32,018 nucleotides of DNA from assembly GCA_000433115.1 (NCBI GenBank), contig FR892168.1, positions 1 through 32,018 of the forward strand, in the 5' to 3' direction. The stretch is from Ruminococcus sp. CAG:382. GTDB lineage: Bacteria; Bacillota; Clostridia; Oscillospirales; CAG-382. Below, piece by piece: positions 665 to 27,991 of this stretch (positions are counted from its first letter, which is position 1; every line of letters starts with the position of its first letter). The notes under the pieces are model-generated. The model searched no databases and was not told the DNA's origin. It was given only the letters and a program-made list of their open reading frames with translations. Position numbers and translations under genes: made by a program.

Positions 665-3220
665 TTATTCACCTCCGAGCAGTTTCTTCAGTTCGAGAAG
701 TCCCTGCATATCGAAGTCGCTGCCGGTTAACTGGTCAATCATTGCGGTCAAAGAAGCCTCGGTATCGGCAATTTCTTTCTCAACATCTTCAAATGTGGTC
801 TGGTACTTTTTCGCCAATGCTTCCAATTTAGCTGTCAGTGTGTCGACGATCCGCAGAGGAAGGGCTGAAATCTCGGTTACCATTGGTTCAATCCATTTCT
901 TAGAGAGTAACGCTAATGCATCCTCTTCACTCAAAGATTCAATTGTTTTCTTGGTTGTGATCTGAAGACTTGCAGTCTTATCTTTGATATCCTTTTTCAA
1001 AGACTTTTCTTCGTTTACCAAAGCATCAACCTTTTTGAGTATAGCGAGAACTTCCGCCTCTTCGTCTTTTGCTTTGAGAGCTTTCTTAACAGCAGCCGGA
1101 ACAAATGCAGTGCTGTCGTCATTGACAAAGTCTTTGGATTTTTCGTCTTCGGGCAGTTCCTCGAGAAGGGAGTCAAAGTCGGAAGTAATAGCAGCCAAAC
1201 GATCTTCACACAACTTTAGCGCGGTAACATCATCTGACAGAAGCTCTTTCTGCACCAGTTCAAACGGCAGAACACGACCGATCCAACCTTCCTGTACCTC
1301 GGTTTCTTTGTTGTCCTTTTTCTTAATCACCATATTGGGATCAACAACCGTAATGGACTTGGTACCTTCGGTTTGGATAATTTCAAGATCTACGGCGATT
1401 TTTGCCCAGTTCTGATCAAGTATCTGATATGCCTCATAGGGATCAACCAATGGAACATCGGAAAGCCGCTTGAAAAGTTCCGTGGCAATCGTGTTTTCTT
1501 CTTTGGATACTGGTATGCGTTCCATATCCGTAATCAGCTCTTGGTTCAGATACTCCGCAAAATTACCAAACTCGGTCTTAAATTTGCTTTCAAATGCCTC
1601 TGTGTCGGCATGAGAAAGAATAAATGCTTTGATATCATCAGGAACAAACAGCAGATATCCTGCGTTCTTTTTGGAAAACAAGGAGTCCTTCAGCGTCGGG
1701 AAAGCAGTCCAGTACTCAGCGAGATCTTCAACCTCACTGACTGGAACACCTCCATACATGGAAGCATAGATATCCCAACTCTCTGCTTTTTCAGACGAGT
1801 CTACATAGCGCGGAATATTCAGATTGTAATCATTTTTCCGGACTTCATCGCGGGAAACAACGCGGGAATATTTAGCGATAGTTTTGCGCCCGGTTACGGT
1901 ATCAACGATACGCTTGATATCGGAAGCACGGAGCTTATTGTTCTTTCCAACCTTCTCAAATCCCTTGGAAGCATCAATAATCAGGATGTCTGTATTCTCC
2001 CGCTTTTGCTTCAGCACCATAATAATTGTGGGAATACCGGTGCCAAAGAAAATGTTGGCGGGCAAGCCGATGATCGCATCAATTTTGTTGTTTTCAATCA
2101 GGTGCTTGCGTATTTCGCCTTCTTCACCGCCACGGAACAAAACGCCGTGTGGAAGAACAATTGTCATAATGCCATCCGGCTTGATATGATAAAGATCGTG
2201 GAGAAGGAAAGCATAGTCGGCTTTTCCTTTCGGAGCGAGTCCGTACTCCTTGTAACGAGGTTCATTTTCTTTGTCCTGCGGGTTCCAGTTCTGCGAATAA
2301 GGCGGGTTGGAAACGACCGCGTCCACATAAAGCGGATCATAGGTGCCGACCGGATCGCTCTCGTCAAAGTACGGCCAGTCATCTTCCAATGTATCGCCGT
2401 TTCTTGTTACGATATTTGAGGGAAGGATACCACGCATTACAAGGTTCATTCGCGTAAGGTTGTATGTATTCTCCTTCAATTCCTGTGCGTAATACTTGAT
2501 TTGGTCACCGTTGCCCATGTGTTTTGCAACGCTCTTGCCGATATTGATCAGCAAGGAACCGGAGCCGCTGGTCGGATCATATATCTTGATTTCTGTACGG
2601 TCTTTCAGATGATCGGCAACGATTTCGGACATAAGTAGCGATACTTCGTGCGGGGTATAGAATTCTCCTGCCTTCTTTCCTGCGTTTGCGGCAAAGTTGG
2701 AGATCAGATACTCATAGATGAAGCCAAGAACATCGTAGTCCTGCTTTCCGTCCATGGGGATGTCTTTGATGAGGTGTATCAAATCGCTGATTGCCTTTGT
2801 CTGACTTCCGGCACCGTCTCCAAGTTTGGAAAGACCGGTTTGCAGTGTGTCAAAAATCTTTTCAAAAACCTTTTTGTGAGTTGGGTTGATCAAACGGCTG
2901 AAAGCAGAAAGAGCATCACGGACATTGCCAACATTGAAATCCGAACCCTTGGCAAGCCATGTGGAAAACAAATTCTCATAAGCTATGAAGTAACCGATTT
3001 TATTCTGTACATCCGTAACGATTTCTGTTTGATCTTCTGTTACTGCTGGAAGATCAGCATCGGTAAAGCCAAGCTCTTTCAGATATTTAACCTCTTTATC
3101 GGAAAGAAATTTATAGAAAATGAAACCGAGAATATAATCCTTATATTCGTTTGCCTCAATTTTGGAACGCATTTTATTTGCGGATTCCCAAATTTTTGCC
3201 GCCAATTGCTGTTTGTTCAT
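665..3220 (-). CDS. hsdM: Type I R-M DNA methyltransferase subunit HsdM (long form, 851 aa)
   Basis: N-terminus MNKQQLAAKIWESANKMR.. is HsdM_N-like. SAM motif I is DPTSGSGSLL and catalytic motif IV is NPPYSQNW (N6-adenine MTase). RBS AAGGAAGG lies upstream of the ATG at 3220. The C-terminal ~330 aa is a charged, helical extension. Confidence 0.9.
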   Translation of the reverse strand: MNKQQLAAKIWESANKMRSKIEANEYKDYILGFIFYKFLSDKEVKYLKELGFTDADLPAVTEDQTEIVTDVQNKIGYFIAYENLFSTWLAKGSDFNVGNVRDALSAFSRLINPTHKKVFEKIFDTLQTGLSKLGDGAGSQTKAISDLIHLIKDIPMDGKQDYDVLGFIYEYLISNFAANAGKKAGEFYTPHEVSLLMSEIVADHLKDRTEIKIYDPTSGSGSLLINIGKSVAKHMGNGDQIKYYAQELKENTYNLTRMNLVMRGILPSNIVTRNGDTLEDDWPYFDESDPVGTYDPLYVDAVVSNPPYSQNWNPQDKENEPRYKEYGLAPKGKADYAFLLHDLYHIKPDGIMTIVLPHGVLFRGGEEGEIRKHLIENNKIDAIIGLPANIFFGTGIPTIIMVLKQKRENTDILIIDASKGFEKVGKNNKLRASDIKRIVDTVTGRKTIAKYSRVVSRDEVRKNDYNLNIPRYVDSSEKAESWDIYASMYGGVPVSEVEDLAEYWTAFPTLKDSLFSKKNAGYLLFVPDDIKAFILSHADTEAFESKFKTEFGNFAEYLNQELITDMERIPVSKEENTIATELFKRLSDVPLVDPYEAYQILDQNWAKIAVDLEIIQTEGTKSITVVDPNMVIKKKDNKETEVQEGWIGRVLPFELVQKELLSDDVTALKLCEDRLAAITSDFDSLLEELPEDEKSKDFVNDDSTAFVPAAVKKALKAKDEEAEVLAILKKVDALVNEEKSLKKDIKDKTASLQITTKKTIESLSEEDALALLSKKWIEPMVTEISALPLRIVDTLTAKLEALAKKYQTTFEDVEKEIADTEASLTAMIDQLTGSDFDMQGLLELKKLLGGE

Positions 3221-3242: not shown

Positions 3243-3479
3243 TTATTTTTTGTTTTTCGGCAAGTCTGAATTGATCAACGCCTTTTGTAAATTATCAATT
3301 GGTATATTGTTCTCATCACAGAAAGTCTTGATCTTTCTCATAGCCGCCATTTTCGGAATCGTCTTTCCGGTTTCCCACCGATTAACGGTCGCAAAGGTTA
3401 CAGAAAGCCTTTCCGCAAAGTCTCTTTGGGATAAAAGTGCTTTTTGGCGTATTATTTTTATTTCGTTCGCAACACTCAT
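3243..3479 (-). CDS. XRE-family helix-turn-helix protein, likely controller (C-protein-like) of the R-M operon
   Basis: HTH LSQRDFAERLSVTFATVNRWETGK. RBS GAGGAG lies 7 nt before the ATG at 3479 (the track ORF start at 3494 is an alternative GTG). It is first gene of the HTH-hsdM-hsdS operon. Confidence 0.75.
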   Translation of the reverse strand: MSVANEIKIIRQKALLSQRDFAERLSVTFATVNRWETGKTIPKMAAMRKIKTFCDENNIPIDNLQKALINSDLPKNKK

Positions 3480-3498
3480 TATTCTGCTCCTCACGATT

Positions 3499-3529
3499 GT
3501 ATATCAATAGTATAACACAAGTATATCAA
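3499..3529. promoter_or_regulatory. Direct repeat GTATATCAA x2 bracketing the -10 element (candidate C-box/operator)
   Basis: GTATATCAA occurs at 3499-3507 and 3521-3529, start-to-start spacing 22 bp (two helical turns), flanking the -10 hexamer. Confidence 0.4.
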
Positions 3530-3537
3530 AATTACAA
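3509..3537 (-). promoter_or_regulatory. Sigma-A type promoter of the controller-hsdM-hsdS operon
   Basis: On the minus strand: TTGTAA (3537-3532), 17-nt spacer, TGt-TATACT (extended -10, hexamer 3514-3509). It lies ~30 nt upstream of the controller RBS. Confidence 0.55.
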
Positions 3538-3554
3538 TAGCAAAACGACATTAT

Positions 3555-4636
3555 TGGCTTTTTCTTGGGAACAGCGTAAGCTCGGAGACTGCTTCGATGA
3601 ACGCAATGAAAGTATGCCAGATGGAGAATTGATTTCAGTAACCATAAACGATGGAATTAGAAAATTCTCCGAACTTGGAAGGCATGATAATTCTAATGAT
3701 GACAAATCAAAATATAAAAAAGTATGCGTCGGAGATATAGCTTATAACTCCATGCGAATGTGGCAAGGGGCAAGTGGTTATTCACCATACGAAGGCATTG
3801 TAAGCCCAGCTTATACCGTATTATCGCCCAAGACGGGGGTTGTGTCACGTTGCTTGGCATATCAATTCAAGCTACCAGAGATGATACATACTTTCCAAGT
3901 TAATTCGCAAGGAATTACATCTGATAACTGGAACTTGAAATATCCCGCTTTCAGTGAAATAGAGATTGCCGTTGCAAAACAGACCGAGGAGCAAGAACTG
4001 ATAGCATCATTTTTCACTAATCTCGACAACCTTATCACCCTTCATCAGCGTAAGTATTTTTACATGTTCACTTCGGCAGGAACCATTCGAACTTTTCAAA
4101 ATACAAACGCTTGGGAACAGCGTAAGTTTGAAGACGCCTTTATTGAACGAAGGGAAAAAACGGTAACGGAAAATGAAGATACACTCCTTTCATGCGCAAT
4201 AAACGGAATGTTTTTGAATTCGGAACTCTTTGGGCATTTTCGAGGGACGACAACCATTGGCTATTTGAAAGTGAAAAAAAACGATTTAATTTTATCTGCT
4301 CAAAACCTTCATCTTGGTAATGCAAATGTCAATTTGCGCTTTGAACACGGCATTATTTCACCTGCATATAAGGTTTATGACCTAAATAATTGTGAACCTG
4401 AATTTGTTCAGGCGTGGGTAAAAAAGGAAGATACAAAGAATTTCTTTTTGGCTGCGACAACAGAAGGTGCAAGTCAATGTCGAAAAAATATAGAATGGGA
4501 TACTCTCGGTAAACAAACTATTTGTATGCCGGCTATAAAAGAACAAGCGACAATAGGCTCATTTTTTAAGTGTGTTGACAACCTTATCACCCTTCATCAG
4601 CGTGAGCGTATTTTGCATGAAATTCAAAATAATTAG
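3555..4636 (+). CDS. hsdS: Start-less HsdS cassette (silent hsdS'): two target-recognition domains flanked by recombination repeats
   Basis: The reading frame gives ..WEQRK-TRD1'-LDNLITLHQRK-(18-aa linker)-AWEQRK-TRD2'-VDNLITLHQRERILHEIQNN*. There is no HsdS N-terminal motif, RBS or plausible start. The track start at 3437 lies in the promoter region of the opposite operon. The long central helical region present in the expressed copy is missing. Confidence 0.8.
3564..3580 (+). repeat. Inverted repeat W, silent cassette TRD1' boundary
   Basis: cttgggaacagcgtaag is an exact inverted copy of 595-611 and 1-17. Confidence 0.9.
4025..4051 (+). repeat. Repeat L, silent cassette after TRD1'
   Basis: gacaaccttatcacccttcatcagcgt is a 27-bp direct repeat of 4577-4603. 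Positions 4029-4051 are inverted relative to 121-143. Confidence 0.9.
4107..4126 (+). repeat. Inverted repeat W, silent cassette TRD2' boundary
   Basis: acgcttgggaacagcgtaag is an exact 20-bp inverted copy of 1-20. Confidence 0.9.
4577..4606 (+). repeat. Repeat L, silent cassette after TRD2'
   Basis: Direct repeat of 4025-4051. Positions 4581-4606 are an exact inverted copy of 118-143. Confidence 0.9.
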
Positions 4637-4721: not shown

Positions 4722-5438
4722 CTATTCTTCCACCACTCCGAGAACTCTGCCACAGCAATAAATGCTGTCTGTCGAGCGCAACGGAATCGGTTTATATGCT
4801 GTGTTGTGCGAAATCAGGCACTTGTTGCCCAACTCTTTGATATATGCATCGCCGTTAACAATAAAGATGCCGATATCACCTTCTTCAAGCGCATCGTCTT
4901 TCACTACAAAGACGCGATCACCGCTGTGGAATGTCGGTTCCATACTGTCACCGGAGATTGGGATCACAAAGTCAGCTTGCTCCGCCTCGGACGATTCATT
5001 AACCCAAATCTTTTCGGGCAATTCGGATTCGAGAAAGTTACCGGTACCGGCTGATGCAGGAAAATCATAGAAATCTATGCCCAATTTGCGCAGCCTCGGC
5101 TTTCTGGGCTGGCTGACAAGCACGCGTTCGTATTCCGCAGCCAAAACCGAGTTTACGGCCTTCTTTCCGAAATCATCTATGTATCGGTACTTTTTTATGA
5201 TTTCCCACTCGGTTAAATTGGGCACTTCTGCTGCCGATCGATAACCAAGAAGCTGATCCGCAGATACCTCAAGGACATTGCAAATCTTCAAGAGAGTAAC
5301 GCAGTCCGGTTTTGCTCTTCCGCTTTCCCAAGTTGATACTGCCGATGGAGATTTCGCCCCAATGCGTTCGGCAAGCTCTTCCTGTTTCATATTTCTTGCA
5401 AGTCGTGCTTCTTTGATTCGTAAGCCAATAGACTTCAT
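4722..5438 (-). CDS. LexA/phage CI-like repressor: N-terminal XRE HTH + C-terminal S24 self-cleaving peptidase domain
   Basis: HTH MKQEELAERIGAKSPSAVSTWESGR. Candidate cleavage region PASAGTG. Catalytic Ser in GDSMEPTF and Lys in AYIKEL. RBS GGAGGG lies before the ATG at 5438 (the track start at 5453 is TTG). Confidence 0.85.
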   Translation of the reverse strand: MKSIGLRIKEARLARNMKQEELAERIGAKSPSAVSTWESGRAKPDCVTLLKICNVLEVSADQLLGYRSAAEVPNLTEWEIIKKYRYIDDFGKKAVNSVLAAEYERVLVSQPRKPRLRKLGIDFYDFPASAGTGNFLESELPEKIWVNESSEAEQADFVIPISGDSMEPTFHSGDRVFVVKDDALEEGDIGIFIVNGDAYIKELGNKCLISHNTAYKPIPLRSTDSIYCCGRVLGVVEE

Positions 5439-5467
5439 GACACAACCCTCCAATCTATCATAATGCT

Positions 5468-5496
5468 ATTATATCACAGTCTGAATCAAATGTCAA
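5468..5496 (-). promoter_or_regulatory. Consensus sigma-A promoter of the repressor gene
   Basis: Minus strand: TTGACA (5496-5491), 17-nt spacer, TGa-TATAAT (hexamer 5473-5468). Confidence 0.75.
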
Positions 5497-5503
5497 GAGA
5501 AAA

Positions 5504-5520
5504 CTTGAATTAAATTCAAG
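5504..5520. promoter_or_regulatory. Perfect 17-bp palindromic operator between the divergent promoters
   Basis: CTTGAATT-A-AATTCAAG has 8-bp perfect arms and sits between the two -35 boxes. A degenerate second copy (tctgaatcaaatgtcaag, ~5480-5498) overlaps the repressor promoter. Confidence 0.65.
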
Positions 5521-5528
5521 AAAACCTC

Positions 5529-5557
5529 TTGACAAATGAACCTCGTTAATGTATAAT
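5529..5557 (+). promoter_or_regulatory. Consensus sigma-A promoter of the polymerase/ImmA operon
   Basis: TTGACA (5529-5534), 17-nt spacer, TATAAT (5552-5557). Confidence 0.75.
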
Positions 5558-5613
5558 ATAATCACTTCACCGTGATTCAAGCAAAAACCGGAAAGAGAGG
5601 CATTGGCTATACC

Positions 5614-6855
5614 ATGTCAGACCGCGCAATCCTCCATATTGATATGAATAACTTCTATGCCTCGGTCGAGTGCATGATGAACCCCGACCTGAAACCGTAC
5701 CCGATTGCCGTTTGCGGCAGTCAGGAAGACCGACACGGAATCGTCCTTGCAAAGAATTACAAAGCAAAGGCGTTCGGAGTCAGTACGGGTGAAGCCATCT
5801 GGCAAGCGAAGCAGAAATGCCCGAATCTTGTTATTGTCCCTCCGCACTATGAGCAGTACATGAGATTCTCAAAGCTCGCAAGGGAGATATACGGCAGATA
5901 TACCGATCTGATTGAACCGTTCGGAATGGACGAGGTCTGGGCTGATGTTACCGGATGTCAGCGTTATATCGGCACTCCTTTGCATATTGCGAAAAAGATA
6001 AAGGAAACCATCAAGTACGAACTTGGGTTAACGGTCTCCATCGGAGTTTCCTTTAATAAGATATTTGCCAAACTCGGTTCGGATATGAAAAAGCCCGATG
6101 CTATTACCGTGATTCCGAAAGAATCTTTCAAAGAGATCGTCTGGGATCTCCCTGCATCGGATATGCTCGGCGTCGGTCGTGCAACTGAAAAGAAACTCTC
6201 GTCAGTTGGCATCCGAACAATCGGACAACTCGCGCAGTTTCCGGTCGACTTTTTTCAGAGAAGACTCGGGAAATGCGGTGTTGATATATGGCGTTTCGCC
6301 AACGGTCTTGATACATCGCCCGTCACAGTCAGGGATATTGAAGCCCCGGACAAAACCGTCGGACATGGTATGACGGCAATTCAGGACCTTGAAAATCCGG
6401 CAGAGGTCTGGAAATTCATCCTCGAACTCTGCCAAGACATAGGTCATCGGCTCTATGTCTTCAACAAGAAAGCAACAGGCATCGCAATTGCGATTCGAGA
6501 TAAAAACCTTTTTACAAAGCAGTGGCAGTGTGGACTCCCCGTTTCCACACAAAGTCCATCGGTTATTGCGAAAGAAGCCTTCTCCCTGTTTTTACACAAC
6601 TATGACTGGACACATCCGATTCGTTCGATTACGGTCAGAGCCATCAATCTCACATCGTTGGACACCCCATGTCAGCTCGACCTGTTTTCCGATCCAATCA
6701 AAGTTGCGAAAGCAGAATCTCTGGACAAAACCATTGAAAACTTGCGCTATCGCTTCGGAAAGAAAATCATCCGCAATGCCTGTCTGTTGAACAATCCGAA
6801 AATGTCGCCGCATGACAATCCCGATATTATCATGCCGACAGGAATACCCATGTAG
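5614..6855 (+). CDS. Y-family (UmuC/DinB-type) translesion DNA polymerase
   Basis: ILHIDMNNFYASVE (catalytic Asp motif), HGIVLAKNYKAK, SIGVSFNKIFAKLGSDMKKPD. The start at ATG 5614 (MSDRAILHID) is preferred over the alternative start at 5572. Confidence 0.85.
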   Translation: MSDRAILHIDMNNFYASVECMMNPDLKPYPIAVCGSQEDRHGIVLAKNYKAKAFGVSTGEAIWQAKQKCPNLVIVPPHYEQYMRFSKLAREIYGRYTDLIEPFGMDEVWADVTGCQRYIGTPLHIAKKIKETIKYELGLTVSIGVSFNKIFAKLGSDMKKPDAITVIPKESFKEIVWDLPASDMLGVGRATEKKLSSVGIRTIGQLAQFPVDFFQRRLGKCGVDIWRFANGLDTSPVTVRDIEAPDKTVGHGMTAIQDLENPAEVWKFILELCQDIGHRLYVFNKKATGIAIAIRDKNLFTKQWQCGLPVSTQSPSVIAKEAFSLFLHNYDWTHPIRSITVRAINLTSLDTPCQLDLFSDPIKVAKAESLDKTIENLRYRFGKKIIRNACLLNNPKMSPHDNPDIIMPTGIPM

Positions 6856-6865
6856 GAGGTTCAAT

Positions 6866-7135
6866 ATGCAAACGACCAAATTTGTCAAACAGCCGGTTGC
6901 TGTCAGTGTCATCGTGGAGAAGGACGGACGTGTGTTCCCCAGGAAATTTCTATGGAAGGACGGTCACACCTATAAAATTGACCGAATAACAAGAGTTGAA
7001 AGAGCCGCTTCTACCAAGGTCGGAGGATGCGGTATCCGCTACACCGTCATGGTGGAAGGACTGCCTCGATACCTGTACGATGAGGAAGGTAAATGGTTTA
7101 TGGAAGACGAGGTTGTAATCGAGGTAGATACATGA
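6866..7135 (+). CDS. Small conserved-looking hypothetical protein (89 aa), coupled to the polymerase and ImmA genes
   Basis: RBS GGAGG lies 6 nt before the ATG at 6866. Its stop overlaps the next start (ATGA at 7132-7135). I recognise no family. Confidence 0.6.
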   Translation: MQTTKFVKQPVAVSVIVEKDGRVFPRKFLWKDGHTYKIDRITRVERAASTKVGGCGIRYTVMVEGLPRYLYDEEGKWFMEDEVVIEVDT

Positions 7136-7776
7136 TCATAGGTACAAAAGCCGAGTTTGAACAACTCGCCGACTTCATTCTCCGGGATTATCTCGGAAAT
7201 ACCTATGACGGCTATGATCCACTTGACATTCAAGCCTTCGCCAAAGACTACTTAAAACTCGATATCTCTTATTTTGCCTTTGACCCTGACACAGGGATCG
7301 AAGGAATGCGGACAGGAAATCAGATCATTCTCGACGACAGGCTGCTTGATGACAAGAAAGCCGGTGAGCGAAACTTCACGATTGCTCACGAGTGCGGACA
7401 CGATCTGATCAACTGGCAGGATCCTACCTATTCTCCGCAAACGGTTGTGAATTACCGCATCAAAAGTTCACGCAAAAGCCTTGTGACGGAAGATGATTTC
7501 AAGGAATGGCAAGCAAATGTGGTAGCCTCCTGTCTTCTGCTCCGTCCGAATCTTGTCGGCTGGTCTATGTTCACCTTTATGCGCAAAGATAAAGTGACTG
7601 TGTTTGACGAACATTATTTGTATCCGGAAGACCGCTATCGACTACGGATGATGGCGTGTTATCTCGGAGTATCTCAAACCTGCCTTTTATATCGCCTTGA
7701 TCGGTTGAACATGGTTGATCACAAACCATTTAAAGAATATGACCTGCTGACGGCATCGTTCTTTAATTGGAGGTGA
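7132..7776 (+). CDS. ImmA/IrrE-family zinc metallopeptidase (anti-repressor protease type)
   Basis: HEXXH motif in FTIAHECGHDLINW. Size and context fit the family. The ATG at 7132 overlaps the upstream stop. Confidence 0.7.
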   Translation: MIIGTKAEFEQLADFILRDYLGNTYDGYDPLDIQAFAKDYLKLDISYFAFDPDTGIEGMRTGNQIILDDRLLDDKKAGERNFTIAHECGHDLINWQDPTYSPQTVVNYRIKSSRKSLVTEDDFKEWQANVVASCLLLRPNLVGWSMFTFMRKDKVTVFDEHYLYPEDRYRLRMMACYLGVSQTCLLYRLDRLNMVDHKPFKEYDLLTASFFNWR

Positions 7777-8248: not shown

Positions 8249-8339
8249 CATGCCCTGGGAACCTTATATCGCCAAATACCCGTAATCTCCGGATTTTTGA
8301 TTCCAACCACAAATTCAAAAATTCAAGGAGATTACGAAA

Positions 8340-8780
8340 ATGAAAGAACTTTTTACCGATATCACGCTTCGCAACGGCGAGGTAAAGAAAATCAAAATTG
8401 AACTTGAGGACGAGCTTGCAGAGTGGCTCGTGACACAACCTGAAGAGGTATATAGGGATTTTCTCTTATTCGAATATAAAAGCAAATGCGTTGAAAGAAA
8501 AGAAACGCGCAGAACACAGTCGCTCGATGCATCATTGTCAAATGGATTTGAAGTACCTGACGAAGACGCCGATGTGCATTTGGCTGTGCTTCGTAAGATG
8601 ACTTGTGAACAAGTACGTAAAGCCATACAGAAACTCGAACCACAACAGCAATGGCTGATAAAAGAAGTGTTCTTTAATGGACGAAAGCAAGCGGATATTG
8701 CAAGGGAGCTTGGCATTGGCAAGACCGCTGTTAGAAATCGTCTTCAAAAGATTTTTGAAAAAATGCAAAAAAGTTTGTGA
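8340..8780 (+). CDS. Small sigma-70-family protein with region 4 only (mobile-element sigma factor, Tn916 Orf7-like)
   Basis: C-terminal region 4.2 HTH: LEPQQQWLIKEVFFNGRKQADIARELGIGKTAVRNRLQKI. RBS AAGGAGA lies before the ATG at 8340. Confidence 0.7.
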   Translation: MKELFTDITLRNGEVKKIKIELEDELAEWLVTQPEEVYRDFLLFEYKSKCVERKETRRTQSLDASLSNGFEVPDEDADVHLAVLRKMTCEQVRKAIQKLEPQQQWLIKEVFFNGRKQADIARELGIGKTAVRNRLQKIFEKMQKSL

Positions 8781-8789
8781 GAGGGGGTG

Positions 8790-9240
8790 CACTTTTGCTT
8801 TTCCTGTGGCTATTAAGTGAGAGGACAAAATTCTCTCGTTGGTCTTTTACAATTGAATACCCATTCATCAAGCACATTACCTGCGGAATGCCCGTGAGTA
8901 ACGGGGGTAGCCGGCTTCATAAGTGCGCCATGACCTCTCAAAGAGCGAGCGATTAAACTTATATGAAGGAATTTGAGTAGCACTCAAAGGGAGGCAAGGA
9001 CATACGCAGAGGACAATGATACTTTTGTAGCCGAAAGGCGCAACCGGCGGAGTACCCGGCGGTGGTGAAATTCCAATGGAGCAGGTTCACTGCCTGCCGC
9101 TTGATGACTTCCCACACGCACTTGGGGTGTCAAGGACAAATAAAGTGTGAGAAGCTCTCGTGAACATATGCGAGAGCCGATACATACTTTATTTGCCTTG
9201 TGGGAAGCACCGAAAGGTATGGGTATTCACATGAGACAAC
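8790..9240 (+). ncRNA. Candidate large structured RNA (unclassified) in an ORF-free gap
   Basis: No ORF of 60 aa or more in any frame across ~8829-9247. Nested exact helices: 9108-9116/9199-9207 (9 bp), 9137-9149/9183-9195 (13 bp including one G-U), 9154-9160/9171-9177 (7 bp), 9081-9085/9093-9097, 8915-8924/8957-8968, 8973-8978/8982-8987. Two GAAA tetraloop hairpins (gccGAAAggc 9030-9039; accGAAAggt 9209-9218). The G-U pair and GNRA loops favour the + strand. Confidence 0.4.
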
Positions 9241-9268
9241 TTAATTATTGAAAGGAAAGAAGCAGAAA

Positions 9269-9658
9269 ATGACAAGAGAATGCACAGCTTTATTTGATTA
9301 TCAGGAGTTTTGCGAATTGCTGGATCATATCCAAGTTTTGAGATCCTTGGCGAGTGAAAATAAAAGTGCAGCTCCCATGTATCGAGAAAAGATCAAACAG
9401 ATTTGTGAGAGAGTAGAACGGGATTTCAGTGACAGTCATCATTTCTTTTCCGCTTGGATTAATGGGAAATCCATTCTTCTCGAATCCGGATATGTAGTGT
9501 CTTTGAATGGAGACAGGAAAGTAATCTTCGTGTTCCTGATTCTGAATCGACGCCGAAAGCTTGGATTACCGATATTCCAAAGTGATTTGGATCAATTCTG
9601 CAAACTATGCAAACAAGCAAAAGTAGTGTTCCCGGAAAAATATTTCACAGGAGTTTGA
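9269..9658 (+). CDS. Hypothetical protein (129 aa)
   Basis: ATG at 9269 with AGGAAAG upstream. No recognisable motif. Confidence 0.5.
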   Translation: MTRECTALFDYQEFCELLDHIQVLRSLASENKSAAPMYREKIKQICERVERDFSDSHHFFSAWINGKSILLESGYVVSLNGDRKVIFVFLILNRRRKLGLPIFQSDLDQFCKLCKQAKVVFPEKYFTGV

Positions 9659-9662
9659 GAGC

Positions 9663-9860
9663 ATGAGAGAAATTCACATCAATATTTCGGTTCCCGATGA
9701 TTCGGACATTGATTCGGTTGTTATCAACTTAAAACATAGGGGTGAACCCAAAGAGTGCAACAACAGACCTCAAAAGAACAATCATAAATTCAATGTTCCT
9801 GCAAAAAAAGGATTTTCAGAAGAGCCTGACGAGGGTCTGCTGTACGATGAACTGTATTGA
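9663..9860 (+). CDS. Small hypothetical protein with acidic/aromatic C-terminus (possible non-canonical antitoxin)
   Basis: RBS GGAG lies 9 nt before the ATG at 9663. 65 aa ending EEPDEGLLYDELY. It sits 85 nt upstream of mazF. Confidence 0.4.
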   Translation: MREIHINISVPDDSDIDSVVINLKHRGEPKECNNRPQKNNHKFNVPAKKGFSEEPDEGLLYDELY

Positions 9861-9947
9861 GGATGCCGTTCTAAATTCAGATTCGAATAACACCCCGATA
9901 TGGTTGCTGTATCGGGTCATACATAAAAGCAGAAAGGACAAATGAAA

Positions 9948-10313
9948 ATGGACAAAGCGATTAAAAGAGGCGATTTGGTGTATTTGAATTTCGACCCCAT
10001 TGTCGGTTCGGAGCAGGGCGGTCCGCGTCCGGCGGTTGTGGTTCAGAATGACATGGGGAATAAGCATGCACCGACGGTTATCATTGCACCGGTCACAAGT
10101 AAAAACAAGAAAAGCAATCTTCCAACTCACGTTAAGCTGACGTCACATATTCTTGAAAGGAATTCCATGGTTCTCCTTGAACAGCTCAAGACTGTCGACA
10201 AATCAAGAATAGACTCCTATATCGGGACATTGAGCGATGAAGAGATGAAGATGATTGACAAAGCACTGAGAATCAGTCTCGCCATCGGCAGATATAAGAA
10301 ACGGAGCGTATAA
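9948..10313 (+). CDS. mazF: MazF/PemK-family endoribonuclease toxin
   Basis: KRGDLVYLNFDPIVGSEQGGPRPAVVVQNDMGNKHAPTVIIAPVTS is the classic PemK/MazF signature. The second ATG (9948) has better spacing to AAAGGA than the ATG at 9942. Confidence 0.85.
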   Translation: MDKAIKRGDLVYLNFDPIVGSEQGGPRPAVVVQNDMGNKHAPTVIIAPVTSKNKKSNLPTHVKLTSHILERNSMVLLEQLKTVDKSRIDSYIGTLSDEEMKMIDKALRISLAIGRYKKRSV

Positions 10314-11560
10314 TGATGGCAAATATTACGAGAAAGCCAAACGGCACATTTTTGATTCGGGTTTCCAACGGAATGAAGAACGGGAAGCAGGACCTTGTTT
10401 CCACTATTTACAAACCTCCGGTTGGATCAACGTCAGCCATGGCGAGGAAGGCTGCTGAAAAGTACGCTGTTCTCTTTGAGGAACTTGTACATAGCGGTGG
10501 CTATGAGAAAAAACAGGCGATCAGTCGGGAGATCAGGGCACGTCGGAGAATGACCATCGAACAGTTCGTTCAGAACTTTTATTATCCCTCCATCCAGAAG
10601 CATCTCTCTCCCACGACCTGTAGAACCTATGAACTGATCATTGACTCTCTCATTCTGCCTTCCTTTGGAAGAGTGGAGCTTGAGGATGTGGACTCCACTC
10701 ACATTCAGAGTTTTGTCGATTTTTTGTCCACACCCGAAGCAAGTGCCAAGGGAGAGCATGGTCTGTCTCCAGCATCGGTCAAACGGTATTCAACCGTGTT
10801 TTCCTCTATTATTACTGAGGCATGGAAGCAGAAGTTTATTGAAACCAATCCAATCGGAAAGAATTATATCCATTATCCGAAAATCGTTCAGCCACAGTTG
10901 GAAGCCTACAGCGATGAGGAAGTTGAACAGTTGATGGAGGCACTGGAGAACGAGGACATTCGCACAAGGGCGTTGCTGACGCTTGCGGTTACCACGGGTA
11001 TGCGCCGCGGAGAACTGGTAGGGCTTATGTGGGATGACATTGATTTCGATAAGCAAATCATCACCATTTCCCGGAGCGTTTATAAGCCCAAGGGAGAAGA
11101 GCAAAGGATCAAAACCACCAAATCCGTTAGCAGTAACCGGACGGTGTATATCCCCGAAAGCTGTTCCCGCATCCTATACGAACTCAAAATCCAACAGGCC
11201 AGCGACAAGCGACACTCGCAAGGGGTTTGGCTGGACTCCGGTTTCGTCTTTACGGACAAGTACGGCAAGAATATCAGCCTGTATGCGCCAACGCGAATCT
11301 GCGCTGAAGTACAGGCCAAATACGGGTTAAGGCATTTGAAACTGCATGGCTTACGTCATACCTGCGGTTCGCTGATGGTGGAGCATGGAGTGGATCCCGA
11401 AACGGTTAAAACCGTGCTTGGTCACGAGAGCCTCAAAACGACAAACAGATATTTGCATCCTTACGCAGAGAGCATGAAGGACGCATCAGAAAAAATGGAA
11501 AGAATAATTCGAGGTAAAACAGATGGTGAAACTTCGATCCATCTGTCAGGCGGTGAATGA
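10313..11560 (+). CDS. int: Tyrosine recombinase / phage-type integrase (Int-1)
   Basis: Catalytic motifs TGMRRGEL, HGLRHTCGS, LGHESLKTTNRYLH. N-terminal arm-binding-type domain. The ATG shares one base with the mazF stop (TAATG). Confidence 0.9.
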   Translation: MMANITRKPNGTFLIRVSNGMKNGKQDLVSTIYKPPVGSTSAMARKAAEKYAVLFEELVHSGGYEKKQAISREIRARRRMTIEQFVQNFYYPSIQKHLSPTTCRTYELIIDSLILPSFGRVELEDVDSTHIQSFVDFLSTPEASAKGEHGLSPASVKRYSTVFSSIITEAWKQKFIETNPIGKNYIHYPKIVQPQLEAYSDEEVEQLMEALENEDIRTRALLTLAVTTGMRRGELVGLMWDDIDFDKQIITISRSVYKPKGEEQRIKTTKSVSSNRTVYIPESCSRILYELKIQQASDKRHSQGVWLDSGFVFTDKYGKNISLYAPTRICAEVQAKYGLRHLKLHGLRHTCGSLMVEHGVDPETVKTVLGHESLKTTNRYLHPYAESMKDASEKMERIIRGKTDGETSIHLSGGE

Positions 11561-12014
11561 TATCAGAGCATCAGATCCCGGAACTGCTATGACAGAAGGC
11601 TTTTTGCGATTGCTGATTGAAAACGGCGACGTGTCTTACGAAATATGCGGTTCCCGGGTGTGCCTCAACATTGCTATTCTGTTTAAGGAATTGGCGTGTC
11701 TATTTGAATTGGAATCTGCAGCTATGCCAAAACTGCGTACTATTAAAGGCGCACTGAAGGAAATAAAGGCTACTGATCCCGGGAGCGTTATGACGGATTA
11801 TAAAATCCGTTGGCTGATAAAAAGTGGCCGACTGCGCAGTTACGCAGTCGGCACAAGAGAAATAATCGTTATGGAGTCCTTCGACGATGAAAATCTGCTG
11901 ACACAGGAATCAAGAGAAGGATGTAATATTACACAGGGAATCAAGTTGAGCGAACAATACGGCGAATTGCTCTCCAAAACCACTCAGTCCTATACATGCA
12001 CTCGAAGGCGATGA
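11523..12014 (+). CDS. Tandem-duplicated small DNA-binding (excisionase-like) protein
   Basis: Two internal repeats: LRSICQAVNDIRASDPGTAMTEGFLRLLIENGDV and LRTIKGALKEIKATDPGSVMTDYKIRWLIKSGRL. RBS GAGGT. The start lies inside the 3' end of Int-1 (38-nt overlap). Confidence 0.5.
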   Translation: MVKLRSICQAVNDIRASDPGTAMTEGFLRLLIENGDVSYEICGSRVCLNIAILFKELACLFELESAAMPKLRTIKGALKEIKATDPGSVMTDYKIRWLIKSGRLRSYAVGTREIIVMESFDDENLLTQESREGCNITQGIKLSEQYGELLSKTTQSYTCTRRR

Positions 12015-12017
12015 GGA

Positions 12018-13301
12018 TCAGACTTCGATGGAATCAAAGCATTCGGCTGCTGCCTTGTCGGTTTTCTCCAGTGCATGTACATATATATTGGTCGTGTCAA
12101 TAGACGTATGCCCAAGTCTTTTTGAAACGGTTTTGATGTCGCATCCATTTGACAGCAGATAGGTTGCGGACGAATGTCTCAGCCCATGAAATTTCAGATG
12201 ACGAAAACCGTATTTCTTCAAAAACTTATCGAATTGTTTGGTCGGCGTGTGAGGATGCATGACATGACCGCACCAGTCGGTAAAGAGGAATCCCTCCTCA
12301 TGCCATTTCTCACCGAGCAAGGCTTTTTTACGGTCTTGCTCTTTTTTCAGTTCCTGCAGAATGTCACAAAGAGCTTGTGGAATTGCTATCTGACGAATGC
12401 TGCTGATCGTCTTTGGAAGTTTGATTTCAGGCTCCTGCTGGGCAAGCTTGACAACGCTTCTGCGGATATACATAGTCCGTTTTTCAAAATCAATATCCTC
12501 CCACTTCAAACCGGCGATCTCGCCACGTCTGGCACCCGTATAAATAGCGGTGGCAATAACGGCGTGAATATGGATAGGTTCAAGCTGAGCCATTTTGAGA
12601 ATTTCGGCAATCTCTTCGTTGCTGAAAGCCTCAACCTCCGGAGTTACGATTTTGGATATCTCCAAGCGGCGGGTGTCAGCAGGATTGGAATTGATATATT
12701 CTTGCTTCCATGCCATTGTCATGATGGACTGAAGAATGGTTAAATATCTGCGAATCGTAGCAGGGGCGAGTTTCTCGCCCTTTTTATCTACCCGACCGGA
12801 TGGAGTAGCCAAGAAATTGATCAGCTCCTGAACATGATACGGTTTAATCTCATCCAAATGAAGATGACCGAGCCTGGGAATGAGAATTCGTTGAATCGCG
12901 GTTTCATAAAGCAAATATGTGGTGGACGAAATATTCTCCTTCTTAGCTGCCAAATAAATGGTACAGAAATCAGCAAATAGGGGGGAACTCGATGCGTTAA
13001 TGGGAGCAATCATTGATTGATGATCGCCCTTGACTTGTTCCTCTGCGGGTTCTTGTTTTGTTTTACCTTCGGATAATTCCAAATCGGTTTGGGATTGACG
13101 TTTGGTTTCAAATTCGATTCGACACTCTTCCTCAAGAGCCTTGACAAAAGCGTCGAGTTCCTTACGAACCTTTGATTCTGGTAGATTCACTCTTGAAGGA
13201 CGAAACAGACGTGATTTTTGAAAAGGACGTCCGTTATCGAGAATCCCGCAAGATACTCTGACGAAATAATTGTTGTTGCCTCGTTCTTTGATGTAAGCCA
13301 T
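12018..13301 (-). CDS. int: Tyrosine recombinase / integrase (Int-2, Tn916-Int-like architecture)
   Basis: TGARRGEIAGL, HGLRHSSAT, LGHTSIDTTNIYVH. N-terminal MAYIKERGNNNYFVRV arm-binding-type domain. Convergent with the Xis-like gene, with 3 nt between the stops. Confidence 0.9.
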   Translation of the reverse strand: MAYIKERGNNNYFVRVSCGILDNGRPFQKSRLFRPSRVNLPESKVRKELDAFVKALEEECRIEFETKRQSQTDLELSEGKTKQEPAEEQVKGDHQSMIAPINASSSPLFADFCTIYLAAKKENISSTTYLLYETAIQRILIPRLGHLHLDEIKPYHVQELINFLATPSGRVDKKGEKLAPATIRRYLTILQSIMTMAWKQEYINSNPADTRRLEISKIVTPEVEAFSNEEIAEILKMAQLEPIHIHAVIATAIYTGARRGEIAGLKWEDIDFEKRTMYIRRSVVKLAQQEPEIKLPKTISSIRQIAIPQALCDILQELKKEQDRKKALLGEKWHEEGFLFTDWCGHVMHPHTPTKQFDKFLKKYGFRHLKFHGLRHSSATYLLSNGCDIKTVSKRLGHTSIDTTNIYVHALEKTDKAAAECFDSIEV

Positions 13302-13593: not shown

Positions 13594-13669
13594 TGGTCTG
13601 AGTGACAAGACTTGAACTTGCGGCCTCTACCACCCCAAGGTAGCGCGCTACCAACTGCGCCACACCCAG
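13594..13669 (-). tRNA. tRNA-Pro (anticodon GGG)
   Basis: Hand-folded cloverleaf: acceptor CTGGGTG/CACTCAG, D-arm GCGC-AGTTGGTA-GCGC, anticodon arm CTACC-TTGGGGT-GGTAG, T-arm GCAAG-TTCAAGT-CTTGT, encoded CCA. Confidence 0.88.
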
Positions 13670-15721: not shown

Positions 15722-15798
15722 TGGTGGAGACGAGGGGGCTCGAACCCATGACCTCTCGGATGTGAACCGAACGCTCTGACCAACTGAGCTACGCCTCC
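15722..15798 (-). tRNA. tRNA-Val (anticodon CAC)
   Basis: Acceptor GGAGGCG/CGTCTCC, D-arm GCTC-AGTTGGTCA-GAGC, anticodon arm TTCGG-TTCACAT-CCGAG, T-loop TTCGAGC (one T-stem mismatch), encoded CCA. Confidence 0.85.
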
Positions 15799-21027: not shown

Positions 21028-21102
21028 TGGAGCTAATGGTGGGGATTGAACCCACGACCTGCTGATTACGAATCAGCTGCACTACCACTGTGCTACATTA
21101 GC
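21028..21102 (-). tRNA. tRNA-Thr (anticodon CGT)
   Basis: Acceptor GCTAATG/CATTAGC, D-arm GCAC-AGTGGTA-GTGC, anticodon arm GCTGA-TTCGTAA-TCAGC, T-arm GTGGG-TTCAATC-CCCAC, encoded CCA. Confidence 0.9.
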
Positions 21103-26908: not shown

Positions 26909-26924
26909 CGCCACCGATGATGAG

Positions 26925-27065
26925 AATACGGTTTGAAAAGTTGTTAACTGAGTAGATGTAAAAGGAATCCGGTTTGAATCCGGAACAACCGCCATTACTG
27001 TATTTGAGCGCATTTTTCAATGCGCATGGGAATCCTCCCTCATAAGTCAGTATACCTACCGTATT
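26925..27065 (+). promoter_or_regulatory. Cobalamin (B12) riboswitch aptamer
   Basis: P1 aatacggt(26925-26932)/accgtatt(27058-27065). Core AAAAGGAAUCCGGUUUGAAUCCGGAACAACCGCCAUUACUGUA (compare AGGGAA..GGUG..AAUCC..CCGCCACUGUA). Hairpin gcgcat-ttttca-atgcgc then GGGAAUCC. B12 box AAGUCAGUAUACCUACC (compare rAGYCMGgAgaCCkGCc). Recognised from memory of RF00174, not from a covariance search. Confidence 0.75.
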
Positions 27066-27226
27066 TTTTGATTTGTTATGCTCAGGTGTGGAGCGTGCAG
27101 TCGTTTATCATGATAAATGATACCCGGCTTCGCGCTCTTTTTTTGCGCTCCGGGCAGGAGGTGACATTTTTCTTCCACAGCCCACGCACACATACCGCAA
27201 CACAAATATAAGAAAGGGTTCACATC

Positions 27227-27991
27227 ATGAAAAGAAAAACTCTGCTGGTTCTTGTCACAGCCATCTTATTGTCTGCCATAGCGGTTTTCGGCACCTCGGC
27301 GGCAGACGACCTTGAAAAGTACCTGAGCGACACTCAGCTCAGAATCGAAACCTATCCTCTGAACTACGCGCTTACACCCAATTCTGACGGAGAATATGAA
27401 ATACCCGTATATTCGCAGAATCTGCGCATATCTTCGGTACGCCTCAAGGCGCCGTCGAGCAGCAGCTACTCATCCGACTGGAGCATTGACTATAACAAAT
27501 GGGTCTCAAGATCCTACCAGCTTGCAAAAATCAACAAACGTCCCACTGTTGAAGAAGGCGACCGGCGTATTACCGTAAAACAGACCGTCACCGACAGTTC
27601 AAAGAGTGTCGTTGCCGTTAAGGAATATGTTCTGCTTATCAGACACGAACTCCCCAAGGTGAAGCTCACTGTCAAGGTTGTTGACGATGACGGCGATCCC
27701 GTTGAAAACGCCGACGTGTTTATCGGCACCAATGTCAAACGTCCAACAAAGCAGTATCCTGACAGCAACGGCGTTTATACCGTCATGGGCGGTTTTGAAA
27801 TAAAATTAATCCCCAAAAGACTATATTTATACCGTCAATGCAGCCGGCTTCGAGGAAGCCTCCGAAAAATTCACGATCAAAAAAGACACAGAGCTTACAA
27901 TCCGCCTGACTCAGAAAAAATACAAAGTGGGATTCAGTGTGATACGTGCCAACGGCTCTTCCACCGAATACGCAACTCTCAAGGTTTTTGA
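27227..27991 (+). CDS. Secreted dockerin protein, N-terminal fragment (authentic to ~27815, then out of frame)
   Basis: Signal peptide MKRKTLLVLVTAILLSAIAVFGTSAADD. CarboxypepD_reg/PEGA-like module VKVVDDDGDPVENADVFIGT. The sequence after ..GGFEIKLIPK becomes low-complexity nonsense. Confidence 0.7.
   Translation: MKRKTLLVLVTAILLSAIAVFGTSAADDLEKYLSDTQLRIETYPLNYALTPNSDGEYEIPVYSQNLRISSVRLKAPSSSSYSSDWSIDYNKWVSRSYQLAKINKRPTVEEGDRRITVKQTVTDSSKSVVAVKEYVLLIRHELPKVKLTVKVVDDDGDPVENADVFIGTNVKRPTKQYPDSNGVYTVMGGFEIKLIPKRLYLYRQCSRLRGSLRKIHDQKRHRAYNPPDSEKIQSGIQCDTCQRLFHRIRNSQGF

Follow-up and report, generated by a model that had tools for sequence, protein, structure and literature searches.

The closest described counterpart of the locus studied here is canT, the orf8-xis region of the mobile element Tn916, which is a cis-acting, orientation-specific and processive antiterminator, most likely working as RNA (Wirachman and Grossman 2024, PLoS Genet, PMC11658703). 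It is transcribed from Porf7, upstream of orf7, also works from Pspank in a chromosomal reporter, lets the polymerase pass the Tn916 terminators T1-T3 along with heterologous terminators, and is needed for conjugation, not for excision (PMC11658703). Its authors found single-sequence folds uninterpretable and did not pursue sequence or structure analysis, and their paper names neither Rfam, pemK nor boxA (PMC11658703). The second relevant description is that of the pemK motif (Rfam RF02913), reported in 2017 by comparative genomics only (Weinberg et al., NAR, PMC5737381); its Rfam model has 61 positions and is labelled cis-regulatory, function unknown. In the literature we found no paper giving pemK a function and none linking pemK, canT and boxA. 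Here we describe a folded RNA unit in 32,018 nucleotides (nt) of DNA from Ruminococcus sp. CAG:382 (contig FR892168.1, forward strand; this whole stretch is called the window below), which contains a full-length pemK motif and is, judged by comparison with Tn916, very probably a homologue of canT. We consider it likely that the unit, at 8840-9113 with a lineage-specific extension to ~9229, is an active processive antiterminator RNA of the canT type.

The unit lies in a part of the window (8781-9268) without any open reading frame (ORF) of 60 amino acids (aa) or more, between the stop codon of a sigma-like gene at 8780 and the gene that follows at 9248/9269. Its longest ORFs are of 59 aa (8777-8956, plus strand) and 56 aa (8813-8983, minus strand), and the G+C content of 8846-9113 is 0.50, i.e. 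not AT-rich. Folding of the plus strand gave a minimum free energy (MFE) of -176.8 kcal/mol against -135.6 +/- 5.7 in 100 dinucleotide shuffles (z = -7.26, with 0 shuffles as good), and the minus strand gave a z of -5.38. As the plus-strand MFE is below that of every shuffle, the stretch is more structured than chance would give. An earlier note on this DNA had pointed to a densely base-paired region, ORF-free and not AT-rich, and had proposed a plus-strand RNA in the orientation of the sigma factor gene upstream and of the hypothetical and MazF genes downstream. The ORF listing, the G+C content and the shuffle test agree with this, and covariation in relatives supports most of the fold; the strings and helices it quoted are present where it placed them or at most one base away. 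On both strands the RNA is overlapped by short ORFs (31-59 aa, within 8777-9251), which are probably artefacts.

By eye the note had found no match to a known family and had called the region a candidate novel RNA. In a cmscan of the whole window against Rfam 15, the plus strand at 9013-9079 cleanly matched pemK RF02913 over model positions 1-61 of 61 (67.3 bits, E 3e-10; the gathering score is 34.8), and the features of membership are present: three hairpins come after an unpaired conserved AUAAUGAUACUU, and UGAAAUU is the loop of the third. The window thus carries a full-length member well above threshold, and the whole unit is homologous to Tn916 canT with its published function; the RNA is not novel. 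The suggestion of a large orphan RNA class of Firmicute mobile elements holds for class membership and fails for orphan status, since the centre of the RNA is RF02913. Nothing else significant came from a permissive Rfam scan of 8600-9400. The only related match, dinG RF03082 at 9015-9092, was sub-threshold (19.4 bits vs a gathering score of 46.9); its consensus opens with the same AAUGAUACUUC and then two hairpins, so that about the first 25 positions are common with pemK, whereas its 3' half is unlike pemK. Rfam places the two motifs in no common clan, and they may be variant forms of a single RNA; of 13 loci scored, none was of dinG type.

The conserved unit spans ~270 nt (8840-9113) and is at least four times longer than the Rfam pemK model. 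A 20-nt box comes first, a long-range helix P1 closes the unit, and pemK forms its 3' third; the Rfam model leaves out the box, both P1 and P2, the 5' domain, and P6. The features of the unit in the window, all on the plus strand, are as follows.

8816-8840, plus: hairpin P0, core GAGAG 8820-8824 with CTCTC 8833-8837, from a terminator-like scan
8840-8859, plus: boxA-like element TGGTCTTTTACAATTGAATA, the 5' boundary of the conserved unit, with an invariant 14-nt core at 8846-8859
8846-8859, plus: window copy of the 14-mer box, TTTACAATTGAATA
8865-8873, plus: P1 5' arm TCATCAAGC, pairing with 9099-9107 and enclosing the whole unit
8874-8880, plus: unpaired linker ACAUUAC between P1 and P2
8881-9009, plus: 5' domain, closed by P2 (8881-8887 with 9003-9009), with the conserved junction strings CGCCAUGAC and GAGCGA
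~8891-8905, plus: lineage-specific hairpin in the 5' domain
8910-8912 with 8993-8995, plus: 5' domain helix GCC/GGC
8916-8923 with 8958-8967, plus: 5' domain helix
8926-8928 with 8949-8951, plus: 5' domain helix CGC/GCG
8972-8976 with 8984-8988, plus: 5' domain hairpin
9013-9079, plus: pemK motif found by cmscan, in which helices 8-11 covary
9013-9024, plus: unpaired conserved ACAAUGAUACUU of the pemK model
9015-9024, plus: conserved AAUGAUACUU within the unpaired stretch
9025-9043, plus: hairpin P3, with a GAAA loop at 9033-9036
9044-9062, plus: hairpin P4, arms CCGGCGG at 9044-9050 and 9056-9062
9063-9075, plus: hairpin P5, with the invariant loop UGAAAUU and GGUGAAAUUCC at 9064-9074
9081-9097, plus: hairpin P6 between the pemK core and the P1 3' arm, GCAGGT 9081-9086 with GCCTGC 9092-9097
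9099-9107, plus: P1 3' arm GCTTGATGA, partner of 8865-8873

The two copies of CCGGCGG, which had been read as a duplication, are the two arms of P4, and there is no duplication. The string CCGAAAGG does occur twice, at 9031-9038 and 9210-9217, as had been seen; its first copy is the GAAA-capped hairpin P3. Across relatives the P3 loops alternate between GNRA and UNCG types (GAAA, GUAA, GCGA, GUGA, GCAA, UACG). The linker has the family consensus RYACRUUA, with nearly invariant alignment positions A29, C30 and T32, and the GCC/GGC stem with its GAUGA/CUGA-like flanks is a candidate kink-turn. P0 looks like a weak terminator of the sigma-like gene, and by analogy it may match the hairpin that precedes boxA in the leaders of rRNA (rrn) operons. 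The 45 nt 5' of the box in 74 distinct relatives gave a mean z of -2.0 vs shuffles, with -0.46 for a control segment 60 nt further up.

BLASTN against annotated plasmids and phages gave one partial match each, too few for comparison. Relatives were gathered by a pattern scan for the two invariant strings of pemK, AATGATACTT and GGTGAAATTCC, which gave 9 loci in a viral contig collection and at least 119 in a collection of species-representative genomes. Most hosts among the loci listed belong to the Bacillota (Clostridia, streptococci, enterococci, Listeria, lactobacilli and Peptoniphilaceae), along with Fusobacterium and Campylobacter ureolyticus. In about 100 of the 130 loci listed a 14-nt box, TTGAMAAYTGAATA, is found 117-275 nt upstream of the pemK core, and between box and core there are conserved strings (RYACRTTA, GAGC, ACGCCAWGAC, GAGCGA and GGCGATGAC) with variable segments between them.

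Outside the Bacillota the loci are L032 in Campylobacter ureolyticus, L058 in Fusobacterium necrophorum, and L074 and L087 in metagenome-assembled genomes (MAGs) labelled 'Chlamydiales' and Anaerolineaceae. The copies in Fusobacterium and Campylobacter are similar to those of Peptoniphilaceae, suggesting recent horizontal transfer; L074 and L087 are without the box and may be chance or partial matches. A short-variant class (L016, L027, L064, L080 and L045) is without the large 5' domain; each has a canonical promoter, then a hairpin and a boxA-like gUACAUUGAAAAAUAC, the latter ~55 nt ahead of the pemK core, and they score only ~30 bits with the covariance model R1 described below.

The two long-range helices were recovered by an alignment-free test on 43 non-redundant loci. 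The cognate arms of P1, whose 3' arm lies ~20 nt past the core, paired at -14.0 kcal/mol vs -7.0 for non-cognate arms, and those of P2, which joins the segment after RYACRTTA to the segment directly 5' of the core, at -11.8 vs -6.9 kcal/mol. RNAalifold on a MAFFT alignment of 44 diverse units gave two helices only, because the variable helices were misaligned. We therefore rely on R1, a covariance model of 241 positions built from the RNAalifold structure (58 nested pairs) of 11 loci with ParA downstream; both the window and Tn916 were excluded from these training loci. The R1 search returned 64 matches in 70 sources. On the window it matched 8846-9113 with 104.1 bits (E 1.8e-26), and on the Tn916 copy (L131) 2166-2452 with 62.9 bits (E 3.6e-15), in both cases over model positions 1-241.

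In the resulting 64-sequence alignment there are 12 helices, and 92.8% of the pair cells hold standard pairs. Column shuffles gave 57.9% paired cells, with 0 of 500 reaching the observed value, and sliding the partners by 1-3 columns left 37-42% of cells paired. Compensatory changes were found in 52 of the 58 pairs and in every helix except two short, nearly invariant ones; P1 has them in 11 of 11 pairs, with 92% of its cells paired, and P6 (helix 12) in all 7 pairs. Sequence conservation and covariation, which the earlier note had asked to be looked for, both came out positive. The alignment has 183 G-U pairs and 64 A-C pairs, and this excess of G-U indicates that the plus strand is the folded strand.

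The relation to Tn916 was worked out on the copy of the element on pCF10 (locus L131). In the orf8-xis spacer Rfam pemK matches at L131 2323-2423 with 55.0 bits. The 452-bp canT clone that is active covers nt 126-577 counted from the orf8 stop, so that its 5' end falls on L131 2166, where TTGAAAACTGAATA begins; a P0-type hairpin lies outside this functional clone. The mutation canT(S3), ATA to TGC at nt 283, falls on L131 2323-2325, i.e. AUA at pemK model positions 1-3, and the bases of this inactivating mutation belong to the conserved AUAAUGAUACU stretch. The deletion canT(delta162), nt 229-390, corresponds to L131 2269-2430 and removes the P2 3' arm along with the whole pemK core. P1 of Tn916 is formed by GTAATCGAA with TTCGATTGC and P2 by CGATAAGAA with TTCTTATCG. 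At the S3 site the window has ACA (9013-9015) where Tn916 has AUA; the family shows either, and the adjacent AAUGAUACU is invariant. Since the published features of canT map onto the unit in this way, we conclude that the unit of the window is very probably a canT homologue and that pemK is the core of canT. The annotated 'orf5' of Tn916 lies antisense to canT (L131 2266-2517, minus strand), and has been shown not to act as protein.

The two units occupy the same slot, past regulators of the orf7/orf8 type and before the recombination genes, in the same orientation as these, and have the same full-length order of boxA, P1, 5' domain, pemK core and P6. They differ in that the primary sequence has diverged so far that BLAST fails to link them, the window is without the orf8 (HTH_16) gene, the ~120-nt 3' extension of the window is missing in Tn916, and P3 of Tn916 carries a 50-nt insertion; antitermination activity has been shown for Tn916 only.

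The Rfam label of pemK, 'Cis-reg', invites another explanation, in which the unit is a gene-specific cis-regulatory leader (a riboswitch, or an element of translation or stability) for the 9269 gene and MazF. The unit is always found upstream of co-oriented genes, often 40-150 nt from the ribosome-binding site, a MazF/PemK gene is downstream in the window and directly after the unit in L025, and in the window and its nearest relative the 3' arm of the outer helix described below ends just before the next gene. However, what follows the unit varies widely among the relatives (serine recombinases, integrases, excisionases, ParA/ParB and MazF, along with small proteins of unknown kind), there is neither a conserved terminator nor a helix masking the ribosome-binding site after the unit, and in Tn916 the homologue works on heterologous terminators placed downstream; genes many kilobases distant require it, and excision does not. 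We hence find a leader function improbable, and the earlier proposal of a structured 5' leader for the 9269 gene is not upheld.

A canT-type antiterminator is also in line with how the unit begins. Antitermination in rrn and at lambda nut, which involves NusA and NusG besides NusB and S10 (NusE), uses boxA as the loading site of NusB-S10, and the leader and the 16S-23S spacer are the two classical positions of boxA in rrn operons; the E. coli rrn boxA is UGCUCUUUAACAA. In the present family conservation reaches 5' of the 14-mer, with G at -5 present in all 69 distinct flanks (100%) and C at -2 in 88% of them, and the box consensus is uUGwwCyUUGAMAAYUGAAUA, compared with UGWUCUUUGAAAACU for the boxA of B. 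subtilis rrn. We compared the boxes with those of a B. subtilis rRNA operon whose 16S and 23S genes were placed by Rfam; the sequences are the following.

B. subtilis rrn leader, 75-91 nt before 16S: boxA TGATCTTTGAAAACT
B. subtilis 16S-23S spacer: boxA TGTTCTTTGAAAACT
Tn916, start of canT: box TGTTCTTTGAAAACTGAATA
Mollicutes 16S-23S spacer: primer GTTCTTTGAAAACTGAAT
Window, 8840-8859: boxA-like element TGGTCTTTTACAATTGAATA, with the boxA-like sequence UGGUCUUUUACAAUU

The Tn916 box is identical to the B. subtilis spacer copy in 15 of 15 bases and to the Mollicutes spacer primer in 18 of 18. The conserved spacer block of Mollicutes was reportedly described as boxA-like by Harasawa et al. in 1992. 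A literature search on the 14-mer box gave nothing relevant, and by eye no consistent complementarity of the box to the pemK loop or to a ribosome-binding site was seen.

The box holds TTGACA, the -35 consensus of sigma-70, and could instead be taken for a promoter element, perhaps read by the sigma-like protein encoded upstream, with the RNA starting further down. Conservation does begin sharply at the box, and a sigma-70 region 4 gene is the commonest upstream neighbour. Nevertheless a -10 element is missing at the distance of 16-18 nt (the block of conservation that comes next is 20-23 nt away), and conservation extends 5' of TTGACA in the pattern of boxA. The box and the P1 5' arm are 5 nt apart, and because this arm covaries with the P1 3' arm it must be part of the transcript. 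In the short-variant class the boxA-like sequence sits downstream of a canonical TTGACA-17-TATAAT promoter, and Tn916 canT is transcribed from Porf7 and works from Pspank. We regard the promoter explanation as very unlikely. A function as single-stranded DNA (sso, i.e. a single-strand origin; oriT with hairpin and nick box; or a single-strand promoter after transfer) fits the carriage by integrative and conjugative elements, the variable hairpin followed by an invariant box with TTGACA, the extensive orientation-dependent fold and the recovery of single-stranded DNA structures by motif searches (Weinberg et al. 2017, PMC5737381), but it is the least credible of the three and the earlier suggestion of an oriT or single-strand origin goes unsupported, as G-U outnumber A-C pairs ~3:1 on the gene-sense strand, the GNRA/UNCG switching of the P3 loop is typical of RNA, the Tn916 homologue works in a chromosomal Pspank reporter without any single-stranded DNA intermediate, oriT and sso of Tn916 are mapped elsewhere in the element, and the box matches rrn boxA, an RNA signal.

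Returning to processive antitermination, the unit resembles rrn and lambda nut in having a boxA-like sequence at the 5' end of a cis-acting signal, often preceded by a hairpin as boxB precedes the box in rrn leaders. It differs in that the box is followed by ~250 nt of folded RNA instead of boxC or a single boxB hairpin. To our knowledge no N-like or SuhB-like partner protein of a canT-type unit has been described. RNA-only processive antiterminators exist in put of phage HK022, which consists of two small stem-loops, and in EAR of the B. subtilis eps operon. With these and with conAn of pLS20 the unit shares the character of a cis-acting RNA that makes the polymerase resistant to many terminators over long operons, conjugation operons included, whereas no Rfam or sequence relationship to any of them is found. 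The bipartite conAn (PMC8191782) further depends on ConAn1, a protein (Pfam PF17362) that is lacking here. Identity with pLS20 conAn was considered and rejected, the protein family being a different one.

We propose that the unit would be transcribed within a long plus-strand operon, which would begin at a promoter 5' of the sigma-like gene and extend over the toxin and integrase genes towards the end of the element. The nascent RNA would fold into a closed multi-helix body, with P1 enclosing the 5' domain and the pemK core, and would stay bound to the polymerase that made it, and thus act in cis. The modified polymerase would then resist terminators and read through the recombination genes, and after excision and circularisation it would cross the joint into the genes at the other end. 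Because the RNA opens with an rrn-like boxA, the complex that modifies the polymerase would most likely be built with host NusB and S10 (NusE), while the large folded body would take the role that extra proteins have in rrn and lambda nut antitermination. By analogy with these systems, we give boxA and the Nus factors an even chance of being part of the mechanism.

Several observations weigh against this proposal, either as a whole or in part. The core of the box in the window has U where 96% of relatives have G (UUUACAA vs UUGACAA). The active Tn916 clone starts inside boxA and is without the first six bases, UGUUCU, so the full boxA may be dispensable, at least in that reporter, and the Nus-factor model is something that we infer and not a result. 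In the canT study the RNA is proposed to bind RNA polymerase directly, with no part given to Nus factors, and the fragment series reported there is irregular, a 400-bp fragment being active despite the S3 mutation (PMC11658703). In the window no strong plus-strand intrinsic terminator was found between the unit and the integrase, with only weak terminator-like sites downstream, and a search for att repeats gave none that was convincing; the far end of the element was not located and may fall outside the window. BLASTP of the sigma-like protein of the window against Tn916 Orf7 showed no similarity. It should also be noted that covariation was counted on an alignment fitted to the model, which favours the structure of the model; the slid controls and the alignment-free test argue that the covariation signal is real.

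Downstream of P1 the window has a subfamily-specific 3' extension (9108-9229) that is only partly conserved. About 25 distinct relatives share, after P1, the string UUCCC, a hairpin S1 with a covarying stem, and a variable hairpin followed by UACAUA. The features of this part are listed here.

9108-9116 with 9199-9207, plus: closing stem, CTTCCCACA with TGTGGGAAG
9117-9123 with 9143-9149, plus: hairpin S1, with the 19-nt loop GGGGUGUCAAGGACAAAUA at 9124-9142
9154-9160 with 9171-9177, plus: variable hairpin
9181-9186, plus: conserved UACAUA
9209-9218, plus: GAAA hairpin
8854-8864 with 9219-9229, plus: outer helix of 11 bp, which the earlier note did not list

The S1 loop is conserved, with the family consensus GGGGUGUYGAGRACAAAUA, and the S1 arms of 25 distinct loci paired at -8.2 kcal/mol when cognate vs -4.6 when non-cognate. 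A nested three-helix domain had been drawn at 9108-9207, in what turns out to be the least conserved part of the unit, and it is partly right. Its 9-bp closing stem (9108-9116/9199-9207) is absent from the wider family, but L001, the nearest relative, retains it with one compensatory change (UCCCAUA with UAUGGGA). Its 7-bp hairpin (GCTCTCG 9154-9160 with CGAGAGC 9171-9177) is present, at the site of the variable hairpin of the relatives. Its 13-bp helix (9134-9146 with 9186-9197, one bulged A) clashes with the covarying S1, whose loop and 3' arm it overlaps, is lost even in L001, and is not supported. The outer helix behaves like the closing stem: L001 retains it, again with one compensatory change (UGAAUAUCCAUU with AAUGGAUAUUCA), and the wider family lacks it. 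It joins the 3' half of boxA to the segment just before the next gene, and could make the signal switchable in the lineage of the window. An H-type pseudoknot could arise between the invariant UUCCC (9109-9113) and the invariant GGGG at the start of the S1 loop (9124-9127), or UUCCC could act as an anti-Shine-Dalgarno sequence and pair with purine-rich ribosome-binding sites further down. As both strings are invariant, covariation cannot decide on their pairing.

The genes and signals around the unit in the window are these.

665-3220, minus: Type I restriction-modification methylase
3437-4636, plus: Type I specificity subunit
4722-5453, minus: LexA/CI-like S24 repressor (HTH_3 and Peptidase_S24)
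5468-5557, both strands: perfect divergent sigma-A promoter pair, TTGACA-17-TATAAT
5529-5557, plus: candidate promoter of the long plus-strand operon (TTGACA, 17 nt, TATAAT; 12 of 12 matches in a promoter scan)
5572-6855, plus: UmuC-like polymerase
7093-7776, plus: IrrE-like peptidase
8340-8780, plus: sigma-like gene of 146 aa with sigma-70 region 4 (Pfam Sigma70_r4_2, 1.6e-10), in the same position as Tn916 orf7
8840-9229, plus: canT-type unit
9269-9658, plus: hypothetical gene
9942-10313, plus: MazF/PemK toxin (Pfam PemK_toxin, 6.9e-35)
10313-11560, plus: tyrosine integrase (Pfam Phage_integrase, 2.3e-33)
11523-12014, plus: further ORF
12018-13301, minus: second tyrosine integrase, directly downstream of a tRNA gene
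13597-13669, minus: tRNA

No plus-strand sigma-70-type promoter was found within 8300-9700, and the unit is therefore probably fed from upstream, for which the promoter at 5529-5557 is the candidate. In the relatives the gene most often found upstream encodes a co-oriented ~140-aa protein with sigma-70 region 4 and is the nearest upstream gene in at least 35 of them, and sometimes a gene for an HTH_16 or Xre protein takes this place; the genes downstream encode large serine recombinases, tyrosine integrases, excisionase-like proteins, ParA/ParB and MazF. These neighbourhoods are the regulatory and recombination end of Tn916-like elements.

Some further features of the window were seen. The divergent promoters between the repressor and the UmuC-like gene look like an SOS-type switch for the long operon of the island. 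The second integrase abuts the end of the canT-bearing operon at 12014, which suggests two islands, tandem or nested, and further tRNAs are found at 15725-15798 and 21031-21102. A 67-aa ORF with a GTG start (9742-9945, plus strand) overlaps the MazF start (9942) by four bases and is a better antitoxin candidate than the 65-aa ORF at 9663-9860, which has no Pfam match. The Type I specificity gene has internal direct repeats 546-552 nt apart (3564-3611/4110-4157 and 4001-4061/4553-4613), a similar pair is found at 1-63 and 595-657, and such repeats are typical of duplicated target-recognition domains or shufflable hsdS copies. A cobalamin riboswitch, RF00174, was found at 26912-27077 on the plus strand (45.6 bits), upstream of plus-strand ORFs starting at 27227.

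To the published papers searched the present analysis adds the equation of pemK with canT, a full-length structure supported by covariation, the breadth of the family and the identity of the box as boxA. For the window, an apparent orphan becomes an annotated regulatory RNA, and the short ORFs over the unit are probably not genes. The pemK motif, previously without a known function, gains one in processive antitermination, and canT gains a secondary structure supported by covariation, defined boundaries and at least 119 homologous loci, while the boxA match offers a testable mechanism in the recruitment of Nus factors. More broadly, pemK may be the core of a large canT family of mobile-element antiterminator RNAs exploiting the rrn antitermination machinery of the host, a proposition for and against which we find the balance about equal. 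If it is true, an rrn-derived boxA would load NusB-S10, a body of ~250 nt would replace the protein cofactors, and terminator-proof polymerases would couple excision to the expression of transfer genes. The carriers are integrative and conjugative elements, mobilisable islands and plasmid-like elements with tyrosine or serine recombinases or ParAB, in many Bacillota and also in Fusobacterium and Campylobacter. Such elements move antibiotic-resistance genes among Gram-positives, and an RNA needed for the expression of transfer genes would be a handle to predict or block transfer.

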